Shown here: positions 4,387 to 43,816 of the stretch, one piece after another
Layout: each line of letters begins with the position of its first letter
Numbering within the stretch: the stretch's first letter is position 1
DNA from: a virus
Lineage: Duplodnaviria > Heunggongvirae > Uroviricota > Caudoviricetes
DNA: 45,189 nt
Strand: one strand, 5' to 3'
IMG/VR virus record: IMGVR_UViG_2617270960_000003
Location: 1-45,189 of that record
The notes under the pieces: generated by a model
Told to the model about the DNA's origin: nothing
The model's database searches: none
The model's input: only the letters and a program-made list of their open reading frames with translations
Translations under genes and position numbers: made by a program

Positions 4387-7300
4387 CTAGCATCCAGCGC
4401 GGACGGTTAAAAATCTCAGACCATTGCGCGTCACTATCAACCGGCAGGACGAATAAATATCGTTATTCTCCCGCTCATGTTTAGCGCCGCAGAATGCCAC
4501 CGCTGGAATAACAATTTGCCTGTCAAAAGGCTGATCGTCATAAATCCTGACGGTGATGGTGCCACTGGCATAAGTGCCCGTCCGCGGGAAAGACTTACCC
4601 ACCGTTTTGACAATATCGCCTTCAATCTGATTGGCTGACAGTTTCCCCTTAATCTGACAGTTCTCATTAATCGTGACGTTGTTGAGCGTCCCGGAGTTCG
4701 CATTCACACTGCCACTGATATCCGCATTTTTAGCAGTCAGCTTTCCGTCCGGTGTCAGGGAAAATGCCGGTGGATTTCCACCGCTGGTAATGGTGGGGGC
4801 CGTCAGGCGTTTCAGGAACACGTCGTTCATGAATATCTGATCGCCCTGACCAACAAACATCGGTTTTGTGTTGCCATTCGCAGGATTAACCATCGCAATC
4901 CTGTCCGCCGCCAGCAGCACCTGACTCTGCATGCCGTCAGGGGTGTTCTCAATACCGACACCAATACCCGCGATATAAAGGCGTCCGTCCTGCATCTGCT
5001 GCAGCTTCACAGCCCACATGCTGTTCAGGTTATTATTTGTATCAACCTGAACCTTCTGTATCTGCTGAATTGCCGCACTCTGGTCTTCCAGTTTCTTATT
5101 GACGGTCTGCGTGATTTCATTGCTGACATCCGTAATGGACGTCCTGATTTCAGCCAGGTCAGGCGCAAGCTGACCGTTATCAATCTGCGTCCACAGCTCC
5201 TGAGCCAGATGGGTTTTCCCTATCTCGCCTTTGAAAAAATCCAGATAGCCGGATGCATCATCGCTCGCCCGACCGACGGCCTCCACAAATGCCGATTTGC
5301 CTACGGTGTTCACACTGCGGGTATAAAAGTAATAATCATGGCCCGGTTTGATATTGATACTGGCGGCTATCCAGTACAGCGCCGTACCAAGATAGCGGGC
5401 TGTGGTTTCAACCTGCCTGATATCCGCAATCCGCTTTTCCGAGAACCAGAACTCAAACTGTACCGTCGGATCATAAACCGCAAGATGCGGCGTGGCGGTT
5501 ATCTGAAAATAGCCCGGCGTCAGCTCAATCCGCGACGGCGCTGCCGGTGCGGCGATCCGGAACAATACCGATGCCGGATCGCCCTGCTGTCCCCATGCAT
5601 TTACCGCCCGGACTGTCAGCGTGTACCGCCCCAGCGCCAGCTGCGTGAAGCGATATGTGGTTTCCGTCGTCCGGGCCGTGCTGACCAACCGCTCACTGCC
5701 GTCGTCCGCTGCCACGGTCAGGCGCAGACTGAAGCGCACGCCCTTCACCACCCGCGGCGTGTCCCATTTAGCCTGCGCCAGATACTGGCCGTCAGCTGCG
5801 CTCACCTCCACCGTCAGGTGCTGTACTGCCGGTGGGATGACGCTGTTCAGGGAGCCTGACTGCGGCTCAAAGCGGGCACCGTTATCCACGATGGCTTCTT
5901 TTTCCGGTACGTGCTGCACCGCCGTGATGGCAAAGGTGCCGTCCGTGTTTTCCCGGATGGAGACACAGCGGAACAGGCGACGGCGCAGTGACGGCAGGGA
6001 GAGTCCCCACACCCCGTATGTCTCCACACCATCAGGCAGGGTACTGACCTGTATCCGGTCCGGCGCGGGGTGTTCGGTGATGTCCACACTCACCGGCTTA
6101 CCGCTGCCGTTAATCAGGTTCACCGTGGCGGCACCGGTCTCCGGCAGGGTAACCTCACGGTCCAGCGTCAGGGTGCGGGTGGCAGCATCAATGGACAGGA
6201 CACGTCCGCCGGTCAGGGTCCCGGCATAGTCATTATCACAGATTTCAATAATGTCACCGGGTGTGTGCCGCAGCCCCTGAGACCCGAGCGTGAAATCCAC
6301 CGTCTGCGTTTCCAGCAGTTCGGTCTTTATCACCCACAGTCCGGCACGGTGGGCCTGACCGCGGCTGGTACAGCCGAACGCGTCCATCTTCAGCAGATTG
6401 CGCCCGTAGCGCAGTATGGCTTCCGGGTCTTCCACCAGTTCCGTGGAGGTCTGCCAGCCGTTCTGCGGGTCGGTGTAATTCACCTCCACCGCCGTGTGCC
6501 GGTCCTTCAGGGCACTGAAGCTGTAGCGGAACCCCACGCCGTTATCATCCACCACCACATCGCTGTTGGTGTACGGCCACACCACATCCGACAGGCGGTC
6601 CTGAACAAACGTCAGCATCTGGCCGTTCCATACCGGCATACAGCGCATCGCCGAGCAGAAATCACTGAGAACATCCCACGCCTTACGCTGTTGTGCCAGG
6701 TACGCATTGAAGGTCATCCGCGGCTCGGTGCCCCCGAAGCCATCCGGCACCATCTGGTCGCAGTACTGCCCGATGGCATACAGCGCCCACTTGTCCACAT
6801 CCGCCGCCCCCAGACGTTTTCCCATGCCGTAGCGCGGGTGAGTCAGCATGTCCCACAGACACCAGGCCGGATTGTTGCTGTATGCCGGTTTCAGACTGCC
6901 GTCCCAGATACCACTGTACGTGCGTTTTTCCGGGTCATAGTTTGACGGCACCTGGATGATGCGACCGCGGATATGGTAGTTCACCGTCATCTGCTGACCA
7001 CCAAACTGCTCCGCATCCACCTGCATCCCCACAATGGCCGTGTTCGGGTAGCACTGTTTCACATCGATGATTTCGGTGTATGACGACCACAGCGTTCTGT
7101 TCTGCAGCTGGTCCGTGGTGCTGTCCGCCGTCTCCCTGACCATCCGGATGTTAAAGGGGCGGGGAGGCAGATTATCCAGAATCACCGAGGCCAGGAACTG
7201 TGAGGTGGTCTTGCCGTTAATGGTGACATCCTTTTCTGTCACCCAGTTACCGTTACGCTGTAACTGAATCAGCAGACGGACAGAGGACGGATTACGGTCA

Positions 7301-23802: not shown

Positions 23803-24870
23803 ATGAGTCAACATCAATATTATCCACAGCTGAAATGGAAGCCTGCTGAATATGAATCTCTGATGCTTTTAGATCAAACTACGCTCTCTGGTTTTACTCC
23901 GATCATTACCATTCCAGACATAGACTGGGATTATGAAAACGAATGCTACAAGAAGAGTTTGAGTTCTTACTTATCTGACTTCGGTATTAACCTTGCGGCA
24001 TCCTGGAAAGCCAATCGTCCTGTTTTGCTGGATGTTAAATATTTAGATAAACATGGTTCGAGCCGCCATCATCCTCTAGATATGTGTATCCAAGATGCTA
24101 GAGTAAATGGTAAGGAAATTATCCCTGTTGTTTCTCCCGCATATTCAACAAACTATATACATGCTGTTCAACGCAACTTAATCAATGGGCTCGCTATATC
24201 TATCACCCCCCAGACATGGCACCAATTCACAAGTCTGGTTAACCACTTAAATATTCATCCTAGTTTAATTGATGTAATCATTGATTTTGGAGATATTCAA
24301 AACGCAACTGATAGTTTAAAACAACAAGCATTAAGCATGGTCAACACATTATCAGGCCAAGCTCCGTGGAGAAACTTGATTTTATCTTCAACCGCATACC
24401 CGGCATCACAGGCAGGGATACCGCAACATCAAGTTCATCATATTCCGCGCCATGAATACGATCTTTGGATGTACGTAGTACAGAATTTTAGCAATGGAAG
24501 AACGCCAAGTTTTAGTGATTATCCCACCGCTAGCTCTACCATTACGAGCGTAGACCCACGCTTCATGTCTCAGTATGTCTCAGTGAGATATTCGAACGAT
24601 ACCTCATGGATCTTTGTAAAAGGTACCGCAGTTAAAGGAAATGGATGGGGCCAAACTAAAAACTTATGTACTACCCTTGTTAGTTCGCCAGAGTATCAAG
24701 TCTTTGGCTCCAAATTTAGTTGGGGGGATGATTACATTTACCAAAGATCATTAGGCGCTAACAAATCTGGCGGCTCTAAAGAATGGCGTAAAGTTGCACA
24801 TACGCACCATATTACGTTAGTCGTGAGACAGCTTTATTGGTTGGCGCAGACTCAGCCTGCCAAGCCTTAA
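23803..24870 (+). CDS. hypothetical protein, 355 aa; AT-rich cargo gene at the bor-equivalent locus
   Basis: ORF track; AAGGAG 7 nt upstream of ATG; low GC unlike the flanking phage genes; no confident homolog recalled. Confidence 0.6.
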   Translation: MSQHQYYPQLKWKPAEYESLMLLDQTTLSGFTPIITIPDIDWDYENECYKKSLSSYLSDFGINLAASWKANRPVLLDVKYLDKHGSSRHHPLDMCIQDARVNGKEIIPVVSPAYSTNYIHAVQRNLINGLAISITPQTWHQFTSLVNHLNIHPSLIDVIIDFGDIQNATDSLKQQALSMVNTLSGQAPWRNLILSSTAYPASQAGIPQHQVHHIPRHEYDLWMYVVQNFSNGRTPSFSDYPTASSTITSVDPRFMSQYVSVRYSNDTSWIFVKGTAVKGNGWGQTKNLCTTLVSSPEYQVFGSKFSWGDDYIYQRSLGANKSGGSKEWRKVAHTHHITLVVRQLYWLAQTQPAKP

Positions 24871-25432
24871 CTTTCCAGCCTACGCGTTTCTTTAAGGCTG
24901 TTCTGACTTCAGGCCTGAGATTCGCTATTGGAATATTTTCCGCAATAATATTCCATAACTCAAATCGGGGCTTGCTTTTGATTCCTTTGGAATAGCCCCA
25001 TCGTTCAAGTACGTCGATACATTCATCTTTCCAAAGCAATTGAGCGAGCATCAATGTGTCATGGTTTCGATTAAGCTTTTCTCCACGCATGTGCTTTATA
25101 AGAATGGCGCCTTTTGGCCCAACAGAAACCGTTTTAACGCCCCACCAACCTGGGATTAACTTTAATGCTCCCTCAAGGTGTTTCTCAGCTACGACAAGAG
25201 TAACCTTGTCCATTACAGAAGAATAATGCTTGATTTGAAGAGGCAAACGCTCCAAAGAGTCATATTCACTTTTGAGCTCGTACCCGTGTATAACACCATT
25301 TATTACAGCAATGTCTGCTCTACTGGCGCCAAGGGATATGGAAAATTCATCGACCACAAGGCAGTCTGGATCTAAATGCGATTCTTTCAAAAGCTTATGA
25401 TGCACCGCGAACCTAACATCTTGATCTTTCAT
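24812..25432 (-). CDS. hypothetical protein, 206 aa; possible PD-(D/E)xK-type nuclease fold; cargo partner
   Basis: ORF track; AAGGAGA 4 nt upstream of ATG; D...E.K pattern in VVDEFSISLGASRADIAVINGVIHGYELKSEYD; 3' end overlaps the convergent 355-aa gene by 59 bp. Confidence 0.55.
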   Translation of the reverse strand: MKDQDVRFAVHHKLLKESHLDPDCLVVDEFSISLGASRADIAVINGVIHGYELKSEYDSLERLPLQIKHYSSVMDKVTLVVAEKHLEGALKLIPGWWGVKTVSVGPKGAILIKHMRGEKLNRNHDTLMLAQLLWKDECIDVLERWGYSKGIKSKPRFELWNIIAENIPIANLRPEVRTALKKRVGWKVKAWQAESAPTNKAVSRLT

Positions 25433-27577: not shown

Positions 27578-29431
27578 TTATGATGATGCTGGTGCATTTA
27601 TCTCCAGCACCAGACTTTCTATCTCAACGCCATACGCTGCATTTTTTGTAACATCCGTCAGCGTCAGCGCATTCAGCCCCAGTGTCAGACTGTCTTTTAT
27701 GACCTGGAATGCCGGGCCAGCCACTCCATTCAGTTTCGGAGTAACCGTGGCACTGCCGGCGGTGAACACCAGCTCCAGCGTCTGCCAGTCGTTACCGTAA
27801 TCGCCGAACTCCCCCAGCTTCGTGTTTCCGGCTTTCCTGTGATGCATCAGATTCACTCTGCCGTCAATGGTCTGAGTGAAGTAAGACATCAGGAACGGAT
27901 TACCAGTACCCGTCATCGCCACATCATCAGGAACGGGAGCGTCCGTATACAGATAAATCCCCAGCCCGAACTGATTGTTGGTCAGTGCGCCTGAGAGGCG
28001 GAACTTACAGGTCAGTCTGCCGCCCTGTGTCAGCAGGGTAATTGCGTCATCCACCGGATGCATCAGGTACCAGGTTTTATTGCTCTGCTTGGTGATCTTA
28101 AATACACCCTCTGACAACTGAATTCCGCCATTCTTAATGCTCCAGCCCTGCGCAGCAGCATCTCCGGCTGTCGGCAACAGGGAGATTGTGCGTACGGATG
28201 CATCTTCAGACGGCCCCGATGGCGTGTCGCCGCCGGGCGAGGGTTTGATTTCCGGTGCCTTACCACTAATGAAGGCTAAGGTGCGACCGGCTACGTTCAG
28301 AATAGCAGTTGCCATACGATCGGGAATAATGCCACGACGCGCCCATGAGCTGAAATGCGTCGGGCGATTTGATGATACCCAGTTTTTGTTCGTTCGGGAT
28401 GCCGAACCGTAATAACCAGACCCGACAATATCAGGATCTTCTGACGGGTTGTTTGTCGGTGTATTAACTCCGCTACCATCGGTCATAAAGGGAACAAAAT
28501 AAATCTGCTGGGATTCTTTACCTTTATATGCACCATATACCACTTCATATTGCGTACCGTGTTCTTGTTTCCACGCGTATGTCGTGTCGCCACAAATCCA
28601 GGGGACTGATGCCGGACTTCCACCGTGACACTGCGCCGCCAGCCCGGCAAGGTCAGCACGGAACTGCTGTACCATTGCAAGAAATGCTGCTGGCTGCTGG
28701 GCGTAACTGGCATTCGTCATATCGAATTCCCCCTGCATCCAGCATATCGCCAGCAAAACGTTTTTCGGGTTTTTCTGCAATGCTGCCTTCGTGCGGAAAA
28801 GCAGATCCTGATATAACGGCTTACCCACTCCCCAGCGAGCCGAATCCTGACTGGCCCCCGTGGACTCGCTGAATGTCCCCTCCGTGCCCTTGGTGAATGC
28901 CGAACCACCACGACAGCATGGTACCAGCAGGATCCCCGCATTATTAGGGATATACGGAAGCAGTTTTTTGGCAATATGTAAGCCCTGTCCGACACAACCG
29001 TACTGCCCTTTGCTCAGGTCAGCCCGGGGATGGTTAATCGTACTCATATCCTGAACATCATGCAGACAATGGTCAGCAGGAATGATGTCGTTAAATACGC
29101 ATACTTCGCCACCGGGAGTCACTGTGTTACGACGGGCCAGTTGCTTAATGCGCGGATGGGGCGCATCGTATGAATCCGGAAGCGGAAGCCCTTCACCGTA
29201 AGCCATGGCATTGGACTGCCCGGCCAGTACGATGACGTAGTACCACTCCGGCTCAGTTGCACCACTGACGACCACATCACCTTCTGCTGCAATCGCCTGC
29301 ATCAGGGTATAAGGGGTTATGGCCACCGGACTACCAAACGGCTGCCAGCCCTCTTTCAGTTTATGTGTCAGCTTTTCCGCAAGATCTGACGGCGACGCCG
29401 CCCTGACAACATCATAGTGTTTAAATGCCAT
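27578..29431 (-). CDS. nanS: prophage 9-O-acetyl sialic acid esterase NanS-p (DUF1737 N-terminus plus SGNH/SASA esterase domain), about 617 aa
   Basis: N-terminus MAFKHYDVVRAASPSDLAEKLT.KLKEGWQPFGSPVA matches NanS-p of Stx/lambdoid prophages as recalled; lies upstream of the lysis cassette. Confidence 0.8.
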   Translation of the reverse strand: MAFKHYDVVRAASPSDLAEKLTHKLKEGWQPFGSPVAITPYTLMQAIAAEGDVVVSGATEPEWYYVIVLAGQSNAMAYGEGLPLPDSYDAPHPRIKQLARRNTVTPGGEVCVFNDIIPADHCLHDVQDMSTINHPRADLSKGQYGCVGQGLHIAKKLLPYIPNNAGILLVPCCRGGSAFTKGTEGTFSESTGASQDSARWGVGKPLYQDLLFRTKAALQKNPKNVLLAICWMQGEFDMTNASYAQQPAAFLAMVQQFRADLAGLAAQCHGGSPASVPWICGDTTYAWKQEHGTQYEVVYGAYKGKESQQIYFVPFMTDGSGVNTPTNNPSEDPDIVGSGYYGSASRTNKNWVSSNRPTHFSSWARRGIIPDRMATAILNVAGRTLAFISGKAPEIKPSPGGDTPSGPSEDASVRTISLLPTAGDAAAQGWSIKNGGIQLSEGVFKITKQSNKTWYLMHPVDDAITLLTQGGRLTCKFRLSGALTNNQFGLGIYLYTDAPVPDDVAMTGTGNPFLMSYFTQTIDGRVNLMHHRKAGNTKLGEFGDYGNDWQTLELVFTAGSATVTPKLNGVAGPAFQVIKDSLTLGLNALTLTDVTKNAAYGVEIESLVLEINAPASS

Positions 29432-29691
29432 GGTTCTTTCCACCATCTGAAAAATGATTCTTTAAAATACCTGACATGTAATACAGAAAAAAAACAAAAC
29501 CATACCTTAAATAAAAACCTCATCATCAAGCAGATATGCATGGATAAACTACAAGACGAGATATAAACCACCCTGCATTTAAATAAACAATAAACAACAT
29601 CAGAAAAATAATTCTGCTCTATGGTTTACAATCAAAAATATCATTTATACTTTTCAGAACATCACCAGCAAGGCATAAACAAGGAAACTAA

Positions 29692-30027
29692 ATGAAGTGG
29701 ATTGTGATTGATACAGTTATCCAGCCATCATGCGGAATATCTTTTTCAGTCATATGGAGTAAAATAAAATTAATAATCTGGTATCAATCGGATGCTTTCT
29801 TACCTCCTGAAAGTATATTTACACTGACTCACACAGGCATCATGCTCAATAACAAAGTGCTACCTGTAACCATTTACAACGTAGTGCCATTCAATAAAAC
29901 ATTCTGGAATTTAATCAAAAACAGCCAGGAATGCCCTACAAATACAGATAACGTATTGAATGAATGCTTTAATAACCGTTGCACTCTGCAAATATGTCCT
30001 TATGGACTAAAACAACAAAGTCCATAA
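29692..30027 (+). CDS. hypothetical small Cys-rich protein, 111 aa; AT-rich moron at the stx-equivalent position
   Basis: ORF track; AAGGAA upstream of ATG; very AT-rich; opposite strand to the late operon; no homolog recalled. Confidence 0.4.
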
Positions 30028-30060
30028 GGAGTTTACTCACATCTGACAAAATCAATATAA

Positions 30061-30300
30061 ACAGCCCCTCCGGAGAGGGGCTGGAGAGTGGCGCTATGTG
30101 CCATTGCATGGTGCCGGGTGCCTCCCGGTGAATTCAGTACCAGCACCTGAATCCGCGATTATCCCATATACCTACTCGCTGATTGCCCCTCCGCACAGGG
30201 GGATTCACCATGCGAAATTTTTTAACAAACTTCCCGCTGGCCAGACAATAATCGCCAGCCTGAATTATGAGCAACGTAGCATTTTACGGGAAAACTGTTT
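30061..30300. repeat. copy 1 of a diverged ~240-bp direct repeat beginning with hairpin AGCCCCTCCGGAGAGGGGCT
   Basis: Shared blocks with copy 2: agcccctccggagaggggctg, gcatggtgcc.ggtgcctcccggt.aattcag, gggggattcaccatgcga, ttttaacaaa, cagacaat. Confidence 0.6.
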
Positions 30301-30520
30301 TCTGCAGTAAAAAGGCCCGCCGGAGCGAGCCTGGAAGGATAGCGGTCATGTGATGCCGGTTTCCCGGTAACTCAGCATCGGTATCTGAGTCAACGTTTTC
30401 TCTACTGGGTCATTTCCGATACGTTCCGCCTTCCGGCAGACTTTCATCACGTCAGAAAATATAGCACCCTGAGTAACAGGACAGTACTCAGAATTCAGGA
30501 AACTGTGACACATCCTGCAC

Positions 30521-30760
30521 AGAAAAGCCCCTCCGGAGAGGGGCTGAAGTATAGCCTAATTTCTGTCTGTCGCATGGTGCCAGGTGCCTCCCGGTAAATT
30601 CAGCCTGTCTACTGAATTTGCATGTTCTCTGGATCATACACTTTGCCAGATGCCCCGCCGCTGAGGGGGATTCACCATGCGATGTAATTTTTAACAAATT
30701 CTCCGGCAGCCAGACAATCATCAAGCTGTGGAATTGTGAGGTATTTAAAAATTTCAACGG
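30521..30760. repeat. copy 2 of the diverged ~240-bp direct repeat
   Basis: Same shared blocks as copy 1; on the minus strand each hairpin is followed by a T-rich run (terminator-like). Confidence 0.6.
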
Positions 30761-30915
30761 GTAACTGATACCCTGCTAATCGCCTGATGCTTTCTTTTTC
30801 AGCAACGGGAAAGCAACAACCACCACACCCGCCACCAAAACATCATCAGACAGCACCGACATTATCCGGCTGCTGAAGTCCACCATCACCACCAGAAACA
30901 ACAGGAGTGCAACCA

Positions 30916-30961
30916 CAGCTGCTTAGAAGGCAATTGCTCTGTCCGGCTGAGCTAACAACGC
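30916..30961 (-). pseudogene. tRNA-Arg(UCU)-like 5' fragment (acceptor, D and anticodon arms only)
   Basis: Minus-sense GCGTTGTTAGCTCAGCCGGACAGAGCAATTGCCTTCTAAGCAGCTG resembles the 5' half of argU-type tRNA; no T-arm or complementary 3' acceptor strand downstream. Confidence 0.3.
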
Positions 30962-30975
30962 AGAATACCGATAAA

Positions 30976-31052
30976 TGGACCGCCATCGAGAACTCGAACC
31001 CCGCGCAACCAGCTTCGAAGGCTGGCGCTCTATCCCGATGAGCTAATGGCGG
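30976..31052 (-). tRNA. tRNA-Arg (anticodon UCG)
   Basis: Hand-folded cloverleaf: acceptor CCGCCAT/ATGGCGG, D-stem GCTC/GAGC, anticodon stem CCAGC/GCTGG with loop CTTCGAA, T-loop TTCGAGT (T-stem has two G-U pairs), 3' CCA. Confidence 0.6.
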
Positions 31053-31059
31053 TATGTGA

Positions 31060-31135
31060 TGGTGGCCCTTGCTGGATTTGAACCAGCGACCTGGCGATTA
31101 TGAGTCGCTCGCTCTCACCACTGAGCTAAAGGGCC
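31060..31135 (-). tRNA. ileZ: tRNA with CAU anticodon, ileX/ileZ-like (tRNA-Ile2 or Met)
   Basis: Minus-sense GGCCCTTTAGCTCAGTGGTGAGAGCGAGCGACTCATAATCGCCAGGTCGCTGGTTCAAATCCAGCAAGGGCCACCA; canonical cloverleaf; near-identical to E. coli ileX as recalled. Confidence 0.8.
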
Positions 31136-31175
31136 GGGAGCCGCATAATAACGACGCGTAATTAATTCTTCAATA

Positions 31176-32234
31176 TCATCCGCTCTGGCTGACTAAATCC
31201 TGTACTTCCCGAACCGTCTGCTCAAAACGTTCAGTCTCCAGCTCAACGCCAATTGCACGACGCCCGAGCGCCAGTGCCGCTTTCACTGTCGAACCCGACC
31301 CCATGAAAAAATCTGCAATCAGGTCACCCGGACGACTGCTAGCGCTGATTATCTGCTGCAGCATTTCTGCCGGTTTTTCGCACGGATGTTTCCCGGGATA
31401 GAACTGCACCGGTTTATGCGTCCACACATCGGTATACGGCACCTGCACCGTCACGCCAAAATACCGCCGCAGATGTTTATATTCACTCAGCAGCTCCGCA
31501 TACTGCCGGTTCAGTGAGGTATACGTATCCACCAGCTGGTGGTGGAGCTTTTCCAGTTCACCACGCCGATGCTTCTCTTCTGCCACCCGGGCAAACAGCG
31601 CCTGTAATTTCAGATAATCGCTTTCATTCGGTAGCTGCCACTGACTGGCACTGAACCAGTGCGACACCATGTTTTTCTTTCCTGTGGCATCTGCAATCTG
31701 TTTTGCCGTTATCCCCAGGGCCGCGCGCGCATCACGAAAGTAAGAAATCAGCGGGGCCATCACATGCTGTTTCAGTGCACTGCCCTTCGCCGCATACCCG
31801 GCATCTTTCGGACGATACGGCCCCTGATAATGTTCCGCGAACAGAATGCGCTCTGTGGCGGGGAAATACGCCCGCAGGCTTTCCTTGTTGCACCCGTTCC
31901 AGCGTCCGGACGGCTTCGCCCAGATAATATGGTTCAGCACACTGAAGCGTTCACGCATCATGATTTCGATATCAGATGCCCGGCGATGACCACAGAACAG
32001 GTAAAGACTTCCGGCAGGTTTCAGCCCCCGCCAGAACTGCGCCAGACACTGGTCCAGCCACTTCAGGTAATCATCGTCGCCCTTCCACTGGTTATCCCAG
32101 CCCTCAGGCTTCACTTTAAAGTACGGCGGGTCCGTAACTATCAGGTCAACAGAATTTTCGGGTAACGACCGGATAAATTCCAGGCAGTCGGCGTTGATTA
32201 ACTCACAACTGGATATTTTTACAGTATTAAGCAT
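31176..32234 (-). CDS. DNA methyltransferase (orphan N6-adenine/N4-cytosine class; DPPY motif then C-terminal FxGxG), 352 aa
   Basis: ORF track; LIVTDPPYF catalytic motif and FFMGSGST SAM-binding motif. Confidence 0.8.
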   Translation of the reverse strand: MLNTVKISSCELINADCLEFIRSLPENSVDLIVTDPPYFKVKPEGWDNQWKGDDDYLKWLDQCLAQFWRGLKPAGSLYLFCGHRRASDIEIMMRERFSVLNHIIWAKPSGRWNGCNKESLRAYFPATERILFAEHYQGPYRPKDAGYAAKGSALKQHVMAPLISYFRDARAALGITAKQIADATGKKNMVSHWFSASQWQLPNESDYLKLQALFARVAEEKHRRGELEKLHHQLVDTYTSLNRQYAELLSEYKHLRRYFGVTVQVPYTDVWTHKPVQFYPGKHPCEKPAEMLQQIISASSRPGDLIADFFMGSGSTVKAALALGRRAIGVELETERFEQTVREVQDLVSQSG

Positions 32235-32806: not shown

Positions 32807-33628
32807 CTATCGCGTTACCCTCTTTAACTGCCGCTCCGCCCATGCCTCTTCAATGTCAAACCGAACCACCAACGTATCGTAAAAGCGTTTCACTGATTTT
32901 TTCCACGTATCAAGCGTGATAGCACTCGTCACTTTGCATATGGCATTAAATGCCTCCGTTGATGGCAGCCTTTCACAGCCACGACCACCACAACGCTGGC
33001 AATCTCTGATAACAGGCATACCACGTTTTACCGACTCTTCACGATGAATGGCGACACCACGCCCACGGCAATCCTTACAGGCGGTGGAAACCTCACCCTT
33101 TCCGCCACACTCCGGACAGGCAACTTTTACCACCTCCCTGACTTTTTTCCATTCTTCCCAGTAAGACGGATACACACCTTTCGTACACTTTGCCCATACT
33201 GGCGGCTTGCCATCCGGATACTGAACCTTGTTTGTAAAAACTTCGCTTTCAATAAATTTTTCCCCTCGGCAACAGGGGCACTGCTTTTTACTCGCTGCGC
33301 TGCGGGCATAATCCTCAAAAGCGTACGAAGCCATAATGCGCATCACTACCGGTTTTATTTCTGCCGGAAGTTTTCTCAACGCCGCCACACGATCGCACCG
33401 ACTGAGTGCATATTCTGTCAGCAATTCTGTTGCCCGCTCTCTGTCATTCATACTAATGCCCATTTTCCCAAGGAACGCAGAAAACCCCATCTCAGCCCGA
33501 TTCTGTGTCATGCCCTGCGCGGCCATCACATCAGTGATACTCAGCGCATCTTTCGACGTTGAGGCCGATGCATCAGTCAGGCCGGGGGATTTTGGGGAGT
33601 AGTATTTCGGTAAATCTTCCAGTTTCAT
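32807..33628 (-). CDS. putative late antiterminator Q (QuuQ-like, multiple CxxC zinc-binding motifs), 273 aa
   Basis: ORF track; sits between rusA and pR'/tR'; several CxxC pairs; assignment is mainly positional. Confidence 0.55.
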   Translation of the reverse strand: MKLEDLPKYYSPKSPGLTDASASTSKDALSITDVMAAQGMTQNRAEMGFSAFLGKMGISMNDRERATELLTEYALSRCDRVAALRKLPAEIKPVVMRIMASYAFEDYARSAASKKQCPCCRGEKFIESEVFTNKVQYPDGKPPVWAKCTKGVYPSYWEEWKKVREVVKVACPECGGKGEVSTACKDCRGRGVAIHREESVKRGMPVIRDCQRCGGRGCERLPSTEAFNAICKVTSAITLDTWKKSVKRFYDTLVVRFDIEEAWAERQLKRVTR

Positions 33629-35507: not shown

Positions 35508-35663
35508 TTACTCCTCAGGTTCGTAAACTGTGAAGACAGCGACCTCCGTCTGGCCGGTTCGGATTCGTACCTCGCAGAGGTCTTTCCTCGTTACCAGTAC
35601 AGTCACAATGACGGTTAAACAGATGACGATCAGGGCGATTAACATCGCCTTTTGCTGCTTCAT
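35508..35663 (-). CDS. hok: Hok/Gef family type I toxin, 51 aa
   Basis: MKQQKAMLIALIVICLTVIVTVLVTRKDLCEVRIRTGQTEVAVFTVYEPEE is near-identical to HokD/RelF as recalled. Confidence 0.85.
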   Translation of the reverse strand: MKQQKAMLIALIVICLTVIVTVLVTRKDLCEVRIRTGQTEVAVFTVYEPEE

Positions 35664-35899
35664 AGCCTGCTTCTCCTTGCCTTTCGGCACGTAAGAGGCT
35701 AACCTAGATTTGCCGTTCATAGATTGAGCCTCAGATTAATGTTAAGCGTCTTGCAGGACGCATAATGTTAACTGTGGCTTTTCTCTATCTGCCTTTGGTG
35801 TTCATGCTTGAGGCAGATAGCCTCAAGCACCCGCAGCAATTTTACTTAACTCCCCTTTTCCCACAAATCGTTTTTATCCCTATTGGTAATGTTCTCCCG

Positions 35900-36072: not shown

Positions 36073-36867
36073 GTGGATCGGTGCGGTAATTATTTACTTA
36101 AAGATGGTCGCAGTTTAGGACAAGGGAGTTTTGGCGAAGTATTTAAGGTTGATGTCTATAACTTAACCCAGACCCACATGACCACATATGCTCGCAAATA
36201 CTTTTCACCTTGCCCGGACTTTGACAAGACCGCTATAAAAGAGTTGACTGATTTAAGACAGCGTTTTTTAGTTGAGATCAAAACACAATGCACTCTCAAT
36301 AGAATAAACTATGATTCAATAGCGCCAATAGTTTTATTTAATACAAATGGTGATAAACCTTATTTTGTTATGGAATTGGCAGAGTGTAACTTATATGAAG
36401 CCATCCGCAATGGTATGAATTACGCGGAGAGGAAGTCTGCTGTTACTCAGATTTTAAAAGGAATTATCACCATACATGAAAACAACTATATACATCGTGA
36501 TTTAAAACCAGGAAACATACTTTATTATGCCGATGGAAAGTATAAAATATCTGATTTTGGTCTAGTAAAAGACAGAGATACCTTACGGGCCGAAATCAAA
36601 ACAAAATTTAAGCCTAATCACATGGGCACAGATGGATATCGAGCACCCGAAATACATGATAGCGGTCTTTTTTCTTTTCAAAGCGACATATTTGCAGCAG
36701 GTAAAATTATCACTGATATATATCCCACAGAAAGAAGTGAAAAATTAAAAAGATTGATTGCAAAATGTTGCGCACATTGGCCTGAAGAACGATATCAAAG
36801 CACACGGGAGTTACTGGAAGATTTTTTAAAAGTGACGGGGGAGGTAAATCATGAAGAACATAATTGA
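36073..36867 (+). CDS. Hanks-type (eukaryotic-like) Ser/Thr protein kinase, 264 aa, GTG start
   Basis: ORF track; Gly-rich loop LGQGSFGEV, catalytic loop HRDLKPGNIL, DFG (ISDFGLV), APE (YRAPEI); AAGGGGG 4 nt upstream of GTG; AT-rich. Confidence 0.85.
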   Translation: MDRCGNYLLKDGRSLGQGSFGEVFKVDVYNLTQTHMTTYARKYFSPCPDFDKTAIKELTDLRQRFLVEIKTQCTLNRINYDSIAPIVLFNTNGDKPYFVMELAECNLYEAIRNGMNYAERKSAVTQILKGIITIHENNYIHRDLKPGNILYYADGKYKISDFGLVKDRDTLRAEIKTKFKPNHMGTDGYRAPEIHDSGLFSFQSDIFAAGKIITDIYPTERSEKLKRLIAKCCAHWPEERYQSTRELLEDFLKVTGEVNHEEHN

Positions 36868-37567
36868 AATGGCATGTTTTAGCCTAAAACAACCCCAAAA
36901 AAAAGAAAATGAAGACTTTTATTTACCGCCATCTTTTGATAGCGATTTTAACATTGTCTTTGCAGTAGCTGATGGGGTTGGTTCCTCTGAACATTCAATG
37001 CTTGCATCTCATGCAGCCATTCGTGGCATTAGACACACGCTAGGCACTTCCTTTTTCTCAATTGAAAGTGCATTTCATTCAGCTAAAAAAGAAATTGACA
37101 ATTTAGATATTAGCACTGCCACAACCTTAACAATTGTTCAGATCAAAAAAAATGAAGTGTTAATTGGTCATTCCGGTGATTGCCGAGTATACTTCAATAA
37201 AAACAATAAACTAAATCAGTTAACCACTGATCAAACGAGATATCAAGAACTCCTTGATTCTGGTGAACATAAATTACGTAATTTAAGAAATCATAAAGAA
37301 CGGCTATCTTCAGTCCTAACGAATGCTTTATCAAATACAACGGATTTGAATTTTGAGTTAATGTCTTTTCCGATTAGCCAGCTAATTTATAATGGCTATC
37401 TTCAACTCTATGCAATGACTGATGGTGCCTATAAGCATTGGGATGTCAGACCAAGGTTTTCTGAGAAGACAATGCTCTCACCAACAGCTTTTGCGAGTAG
37501 TTTAAGAAAAAGGATTGAGAAAAATATAATGGATGATTACACCTTTATAGGCGTAAAAGTAACCTAA
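36851..37567 (+). CDS. PP2C-family Ser/Thr phosphatase, 238 aa
   Basis: ORF track; FAVADGVGSSE, GHSGDCRVY and MTDGAY motifs; GGGGGAGG upstream; start overlaps kinase 3' end by 17 nt. Confidence 0.8.
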   Translation: MKNIIEMACFSLKQPQKKENEDFYLPPSFDSDFNIVFAVADGVGSSEHSMLASHAAIRGIRHTLGTSFFSIESAFHSAKKEIDNLDISTATTLTIVQIKKNEVLIGHSGDCRVYFNKNNKLNQLTTDQTRYQELLDSGEHKLRNLRNHKERLSSVLTNALSNTTDLNFELMSFPISQLIYNGYLQLYAMTDGAYKHWDVRPRFSEKTMLSPTAFASSLRKRIEKNIMDDYTFIGVKVT

Positions 37568-43248: not shown

Positions 43249-43816
43249 TAGCTAACCAACGAAGCTAAGGTTGGTAATTAAGGAGTTCTCCACGGGTGAG
43301 GTGGAGTGCGTGCGCCGGACACGGGTGAGCATCCGGCACTGACAGTTTACTGAAAGGATATTTCCCTGAAAAGTCAGACCATAACGCGAAAGCGCACGGC
43401 GAGGTAGCTGGTTCATAGATAGCCTGTCGTTAAATTTTCGTCGACCGTGCGCTTCCGGTTGTGGCAATCCGCGAAATGGCGCGGCGGTAAGTATGGCGGG
43501 GTTATTCCTTCCACCGTTGAGGACACTGGGTTGTCAGGTTGACCATACGCTTAAGTGACAACCCCGCTGCAACGCCCTCTGTTATCAATTTTCTGGTGAC
43601 GTTTGGCGGTATCAGTTTTACTCCGTGACTGCTCTGCCGCCCTTTTTAAAGTGAATTTTGTGATGTGGTGAATGCGGCTGAGCGCACGCGGAACAGTTAA
43701 AACCAAAAACAGTGTTATGGGTGGATTCTCTGTATCCGGCGTTAATTGTTAACTGGTTAACGTCACCTGGAGGCACCAGGCACTGCATCACAAAATTCAT
43801 TGTTGAGGACGCGATA

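Follow-up and report, generated by a model that had tools for sequence, protein, structure and literature searches.

iraL, the gene of an IraM-family RssB anti-adaptor, beside nanS-p and STnc100 in the late region of a lambdoid prophage

RssB is a response-regulator-like adaptor that delivers RpoS (sigma-S) to the ClpXP protease, and PmrD is a PhoP-activated connector that protects phospho-PmrA. Anti-adaptors of the IraM family act on RssB. The closest described member is IraL of uropathogenic Escherichia coli CFT073 (formerly ycgW), an IraM homologue encoded on the potB island and reported by Hryckowian et al. in 2014 (PMC4045071). [quoted passage not shown] The published amino acid identity between IraL and IraM is 58.9% (PMC4045071). 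In the structure of IraM with RssB, a PmrD-like beta-barrel covers the receiver domain of RssB on its 4-5-5 face, with further contacts to the C-terminal domain and the linker, and occupancy of RssB by IraM excludes RpoS (PMC10844676). PmrD and IraM superpose with an r.m.s.d. of 1 Å (PMC10844676). Like the IraM family, PmrD binds receiver domains; it differs from IraL in having no four-cysteine tail and in targeting PmrA instead of RssB. RssC of Salmonella was also published as an IraL/IraM-like anti-adaptor. RssC and other distant members share about 20–40% identity; neither the full length nor the four-cysteine motif has been lost in the distant relatives.

The DNA analysed here, called the window, is a stretch of 45,189 nucleotides covering positions 1 to 45,189 of the IMG/VR record IMGVR_UViG_2617270960_000003, a virus of the Caudoviricetes. 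Its late region was found to be laid out as in Stx-converting phages such as 933W and phage 1717, with Q, tRNA genes, nanS-p, holin, lysozyme and Rz, in agreement with the original prediction for this locus. The slot between the tRNA genes and nanS-p does hold the ORF described in that prediction, which had overlooked the STnc100 genes and the DUF3927 ORF that lie there as well. The features are the following.

27578–29446, minus strand: nanS-p-type sialate O-acetylesterase with DUF1737, SASA and DUF6645 domains (Pfam)
29447–29658, no strand: AT-rich divergent spacer from the nanS-p start to the iraL start site, 29% G+C
29625–29651, plus strand: probable sigma-70 promoter of iraL, hexamers read here relative to the RACE-mapped start
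29659–29691, plus strand: iraL 5' UTR of 33 nt, start placed by homology to the CFT073 5'-RACE end
29681–29686, plus strand: ribosome-binding site AAGGAA, 5 nt ahead of the ATG, read from the sequence
29692–30027, plus strand: iraL coding sequence, IraM-family RssB anti-adaptor (identity to CFT073 IraL, NF007393, 8TWD, dN/dS)
30053–30241, minus strand: first full copy of the STnc100 sRNA gene, convergent with iraL (RF02076 at 132.8 bits, gathering score 47)
30306–30481, minus strand: degenerate STnc100 copy (RF02076 with E = 3e-4 and a sub-gathering score of 30 bits)
30517–30710, minus strand: STnc100 sRNA gene, copy 2 (RF02076, 140.5 bits)
30776–30916, minus strand: DUF3927 ORF, 46 aa, hydrophobic (PF13064, 65.6 bits; annotated in relatives)
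30976–31052, minus strand: tRNA-Arg(TCG) (ARAGORN and Rfam; low score of 50 bits)
31060–31135, minus strand: tRNA-Ile2(CAT) (called Met by ARAGORN and tRNA-Ile by RefSeq)
31176–32234, minus strand: N6/N4 DNA methyltransferase (PF01555, 146 bits)
32807–33628, minus strand: late antiterminator Q (PF03589, 165.8 bits)

Relatives of the esterase are named 'SASA family carbohydrate esterase' in RefSeq. The esterase is followed by holin, lysozyme and Rz, and all flanking late genes lie on the minus strand, so that iraL is the sole gene in a 7-kb stretch oriented against the late operon. The region 30053–30710 is a tandem array of STnc100, with two full copies and one degenerate copy, each carrying a terminator hairpin. 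Direct repeats D1–D4 put the copies about 467 nt apart; the degenerate copy falls in repeat family D1 and has a terminator-like hairpin at 30313–30332. Two tRNA genes are present in the window, versus three in phages 933W and 1717 and in the CFT073 prophage.

The ORF starts with ATG, has 111 codons and ends on TAA. At 34.8%, its G+C content is below that of nanS-p (53.2%) and of the window (51.5%), and the claim of an AT-rich 111-aa ORF with its own ribosome-binding site (AAGGAA) on the strand opposite to the late genes was confirmed. The product had also been called Cys-rich; cysteines are indeed present, four of them within the final 31 residues, although the enrichment is modest (5/111, 4.5%). 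A stop-free run of at least this length arose in 94 of 5000 simulations of the same composition (about 2%), so length alone is weak evidence for coding. Nei-Gojobori dN/dS of the ORF was 0.10–0.14 against two paralogous clades (iraM and a clade from Stx phages) and the protein was conserved exactly across 80 IMG/VR viral contigs, which together establish the ORF as a real gene. It is under purifying selection.

The original prediction held the ORF to be an orphan with no nameable homolog. This has to be abandoned: the protein is 100% identical to CFT073 IraL (WP_000871291.1) and the coding sequences agree at 335/336 nucleotides; in RefSeq, copies of this gene on E. coli chromosomes are labelled 'anti-adapter protein IraM'. 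Protein and structure searches, which had been proposed as checks, gave a match of 162 bits to NCBIfam NF007393 (PRK09919) over residues 1–110 of 111, above the curated cutoff of 121, and a phmmer match to chain A of PDB entry 8TWD (IraM 1–78 bound to RssB) with E = 9e-32 over residues 1–78, of which 51/78 were identical by our count. Identity to K-12 IraM extends to 66 residues, and 66/112 gives 58.9%, exactly the published IraL/IraM figure (PMC4045071). Hryckowian et al. assign an iraL allele at an identity of at least 95% to CFT073 iraL, together with its promoter. Besides the 335/336 nucleotides of the coding sequence, 237/245 (96.7%) are identical upstream, where the threshold is at least 96%, and 31/32 at the RACE end. 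We therefore identify the ORF, with high confidence, as the iraL gene of a lambdoid prophage, a 'moron' for lysogenic conversion. The identification is of an already known, experimentally characterised prophage gene.

No match was found in a PADLOC scan of the ORF, which is thus no known defence protein by that scan, and a local Pfam scan gave no match even at E = 10. The negative Pfam result depends on the version of the PmrD model: the local PF11183.13 finds E. coli PmrD and misses IraL at E = 10, while the precomputed PF11183.15 lists all family members. By hhalign, residues 1–74 of IraL align with PmrD with a probability of 82% (E = 1e-5).

The mRNA end of CFT073 iraL was published from 5'-RACE as ACATCACCAGCAAGGCATAAACAAGGAAACCA (PMC4045071). 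This sequence matches the window at 29659–29690 in 31/32 bases, which places the start of transcription at 29659 and gives a leader of 33 nt; at the one mismatch the CFT073 genome has the published C. A −10 hexamer, TATACT, is located at 29646–29651, 7 nt before the start site, and aligns with TATAAT in the gene of the Stx2c phage. The best −35-like hexamer is TTTACA at 29625–29630, with a short spacer of 15 nt. The iraL promoter is stated to be of the sigma-70 type, with the published hexamers given in a figure (PMC4045071). A consensus promoter scan with spacers of 16–18 nt did not return this RACE-supported promoter because of its 15-nt spacer, and the remaining promoter-like matches of the scan were about as frequent as expected by chance (5 versus 3.6). 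Spacer and 5' UTR together (29447–29691, 245 bp) have a G+C content of 29.0%, and the eight differences from CFT073 include the base 3'-adjacent to the −35-like hexamer and position −1. The spacer is homologous in Stx2c phage 1717 and is not alignable upstream of K-12 iraM. On the other side of the gene, the hairpin at 30062–30083 is the terminator of STnc100 and lies 35 nt beyond the iraL stop; it has no U-tract on the plus strand, and it may also end the iraL transcript.

In the potB prophage of CFT073, iraL shares its promoter and leader with the window gene and likewise has tRNAs, DUF3927, STnc100 and nanS-p as neighbours. In CFT073, nanS-p is a DUF1737 stub, there are three tRNA genes and one STnc100, and IS200C follows Q; in the window the esterase is intact, a methylase is present, and there are two tRNA genes and two and a half copies of STnc100. 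K-12 IraM belongs to the same family and length class as IraL and has the PmrD-like core and the C-terminal four-cysteine motif. It differs from IraL in sequence (62% identical amino acids, 70% identical nucleotides), in its published regulation and RssB-binding mode and in the position of its gene, which adjoins e14/icdC and not nanS-p.

A gene of the same family occupies the same place and orientation in Stx2c, Stx2a and Stx2k phages (gp43 of phage 1717; phage 2851), diverging from nanS-p across about 245 bp and running towards STnc100. Its promoter region is homologous to that of iraL, and its product has identities of 75% with IraL and 65% with IraM. This clade is distinct in that its product has 107 aa and stx2AB lies beyond STnc100, and it is found in some Stx2a phages. 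In the loci of phage 1717 (Stx2c; gene at 5001–5324) and O157:H7 Z1815 (gene at 6115–6438), the order is Q, three tRNAs, stx2A, stx2B, STnc100, the IraM-family gene on the opposite strand and nanS-p. In a search of the literature with incomplete coverage, no functional study of the Stx2-phage clade was found, a weak negative.

Stx2 A or B was not found anywhere in the window by tblastn with Stx2c A and B (best E = 0.06, over a stretch of 18 aa), as had been predicted for the slot between the tRNAs and nanS-p. Homology to the Stx2c locus starts inside nanS-p and continues without a break across the spacer and the ira gene into STnc100 (28298–30229, 68%) and that to Stx2c prophages resumes at the tRNAs (30920–31166, 90%). 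Since the homology breaks after STnc100 and resumes at the tRNAs, the interval that corresponds to stx is 30242–30975. It holds the degenerate STnc100, the second full STnc100 and the DUF3927 ORF; this ORF and the extra STnc100 copies sit where Stx2c phages have stx2AB. In phage 933W, stx2 and nanS-p are 486 bp apart with no ira gene between them. Stx2c loci thus have both genes, 933W has stx2 only and the window has ira only, so that the presence of ira and that of stx are independent. All four combinations of presence are seen or implied.

Among 50,697 phage records searched by tblastn, 46 have an IraM-family gene. They include at least 32 that bear names of Stx2-, Stx2a- or Stx2c-converting phages and one Stx2k phage, making at least 33 Stx2 phages; iraL itself, at 98% identity, is present in four non-Stx phages. 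Of 5,426 complete genomes of E. coli, about 1,400 have the iraL region at an identity of at least 95% and 236 have the Stx-phage clade; most of these 236 are O157:H7 or other STEC. When 1.84 billion representative proteins were searched with a profile, 95 relatives were obtained, with full-length members down to 20% identity.

Of the 78 viral contigs long enough to show it, 77 have the start of a divergent nanS-p about 260 bp upstream of iraL, and the STnc100 match begins 29 nt beyond the final codon of iraL in 74/74. The arrangement of nanS-p, iraL and STnc100 is a fixed module, as far as concerns this allele: all 80 viral contigs carry the identical iraL and are uninformative on other clades. 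STnc100 is present once in 67 contigs and twice in seven, and E. coli AF58 has one copy compared with the two and a half of the window; this variation is consistent with unequal recombination between copies. Other clades of the IraM family also lie in the interval between Q and the lysis genes, always against the late genes, with a varying insertion point. A 60%-identical clade is located between a methylase and nanS-p, and the clade of E. albertii between an ORF6N gene and DUF3927/STnc100/nanS-p. The exception is K-12 iraM next to the end of e14 (icdC), with no flanking homology. In the E. albertii prophage, isrK and a C4 antisense RNA with a1/b1 targets were observed at 6072–6272, downstream of Q and before the ORF6N gene and the IraM-like gene, a late-region leader unlike that of the window.

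The contacts of IraM with RssB were compared with the sequence of IraL. Out of 14 RssB-contacting residues of IraM (PMC10844676 and its preprint), ten are identical in IraL and four are replaced conservatively, and the contacts to the RssB N-terminal domain (cluster I) are identical in 5/5 cases. The four substitutions T13S, L75I, H63N and I64V all fall in clusters placed at the interface with the RssB C-terminal domain or, on our reading, the linker (PMC10844676). Judged from the sequence, this pattern fits the reported binding of IraL to the N-terminal domain only. An AlphaFold2 model from a shallow alignment of 11 sequences was of poor quality (mean pLDDT 48) and contributes no more than an order of strands and helices that fits a barrel followed by a helix at 69–76.

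From these data, iraL would be read from its own sigma-70-type promoter, against the Q-dependent late operon. Because of this opposite orientation, it could be expressed in a lysogen in which the late genes are silent, and it is probably expressed in the present host. The core of IraL (about residues 1–78, the PmrD-like beta-barrel) would bind RssB, the gene of which lies in the host and outside the window; the block of RssB would stabilise RpoS, in the case of IraL during exponential growth without stress. After induction, Q-antiterminated late transcription would be expected to cross iraL antisense.

Other explanations were weighed against the identification as iraL. The ORF might be the functional equivalent of K-12 IraM, which is controlled by PhoP/PhoQ and induced by Mg2+ starvation and is not of the log-phase IraL type; family membership, the RefSeq label and the 62% amino acid identity would be in line with this. 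However, homology to K-12 iraM is limited to the coding region (window 29690–30011) and the regions upstream cannot be aligned; the values of 70% (nucleotides) and 62% (amino acids) lie below the identity of at least 95% that, together with the same upstream region, defines a K-12 iraM allele. Gene and promoter are instead those of CFT073 iraL, for which activity in log phase without stress and a binding of RssB unlike that of IraM were reported, and an IraM-type function is very unlikely. The original prediction saw the ORF as standing in for the toxin genes, as alternative cargo in one slot that holds either this gene or stx. The window, which has the gene and no stx, and the 80 iraL-bearing viral contigs, none of which has stx within 4 kb of iraL, would suit such a slot. 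Against it stand the Stx2 phages that make up at least 33 of the 46 records with an IraM-family gene, the gene adjoining stx2B/STnc100 on the nanS-p side in phage 1717 and Z1815, stx2 without the gene in 933W and the stx insertion point in 30242–30975, away from the ORF. The comparison across related prophages, proposed to see whether the ORF alternates with stx, therefore showed no alternation in one slot; the Stx2c loci, which carry both, already refute the proposal at the level of the family, and we regard it as highly improbable for the window. That the ORF is a chance or decayed reading frame in a non-coding AT-rich spacer would agree with the frequency of such open runs in the simulations and with the low confidence of the AlphaFold model. 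It is contradicted by the dN/dS values, the occurrence in 80 viral contigs and the full-length conservation, with invariant residues, down to 20% identity over 41 members, as well as by the 5' RACE, the complementation and the RssB interaction published for the identical protein (PMC4045071). Conservation and published experiments have thus already refuted this reading, to which we give practically no chance; the ORF is conserved, and the region is not the non-coding spacer that the original prediction had allowed for.

A different question is whether the phage itself is the main beneficiary of the gene, either through RpoS tuning the stability or induction of the lysogen or through the PmrD-like core targeting a response regulator other than RssB. 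The recurrence of the family in the Q-to-lysis interval of lambdoid prophages, in several clades and arrangements, the fixed module with nanS-p and STnc100 and the remote homology of the core to PmrD, which binds PmrA, point in this direction; RssB, however, is the only demonstrated partner of IraL, and we consider the idea rather doubtful. It is compatible with the explanation by iraL and does not exclude it.

The C-terminal part of IraL, outside the barrel, contains the motif C81-x10-C92-x4-C97-x4-C102-P-Y-G at residues 81–105 (window 29932–30006). For the family, the motif C-x10-C-x4/5-C-x4-C-P-[YF]-G was derived here. In an alignment of 41 full-length members, 20–76% identical to IraL, only the columns of W72, C81, C97 and C102 were invariant, and C92 and P103 were kept at 90% or more. 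The pattern C-x(8-14)-C-x(3-6)-C-x(4-5)-C occurred in all 41 members, in 27 of them with a spacing of 10/5/4. The tail residues 79–107 were cut from the construct behind the only crystal structure, that of IraM, because the full-length protein was unstable, and were called less conserved and flexible (PMC10844676). In the literature searched, again with incomplete coverage, no mention of a cysteine motif in the IraM family was found, a weak negative. By these alignments, the four-cysteine tail appears to be the most conserved feature of the family and is missing from the structural models; a metal or redox role is plausible. As a tentative proposal, the nanS-p/ira/STnc100 module would be mobile with or without stx, and the four-cysteine motif would act as a metal-binding or redox-sensing gate on the inhibition of RssB.

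Further accessory genes were observed in the window. A convergent pair at 23803–25432, between the lysis genes and the terminase, consists of an ORF at 23803–24870 (plus strand) with a PADLOC 'beta'/PD-Lambda-2_C match, a beta family protein in RefSeq, and an ORF at 24812–25432 (minus strand) with a PADLOC 'cll' match, an sce7726 family protein in RefSeq. This pair is a candidate anti-phage defence moron. At 36073–36867 (plus strand), a Ser/Thr-kinase-like protein is encoded with PADLOC matches to mad6, PD-T4-6 and Stk2 (E down to 1e-37), possibly an early-region defence or exclusion kinase; the overlapping downstream ORF at 36851–37567 gave no PADLOC match. Matches at the gathering level of Rfam were obtained for the sok antitoxin RNA (35658–35832; hokD in relatives) and the DicF sRNA (43591–43642), both of which are typical of Qin/Rac-like lambdoid prophages.

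The leads of some novelty in this analysis are confined to the cysteine motif and the Stx2-phage clade. The comparison adds three points to the published picture: the fixed association of iraL, a moron of the Q-to-lysis interval, with nanS-p and STnc100, a sister clade beside stx2 in the Stx2c/Stx2a phages of O157:H7, and a conserved cysteine tail in the family. Assays specific for the iraL and iraM alleles would miss the Stx2-phage clade, which is a candidate to explain the high log-phase RpoS in EHEC lacking iraL. Uropathogenic E. coli and Shigella are enriched for iraL itself (PMC4045071), a prophage gene that resets the general stress response of its host by stabilising RpoS during growth.
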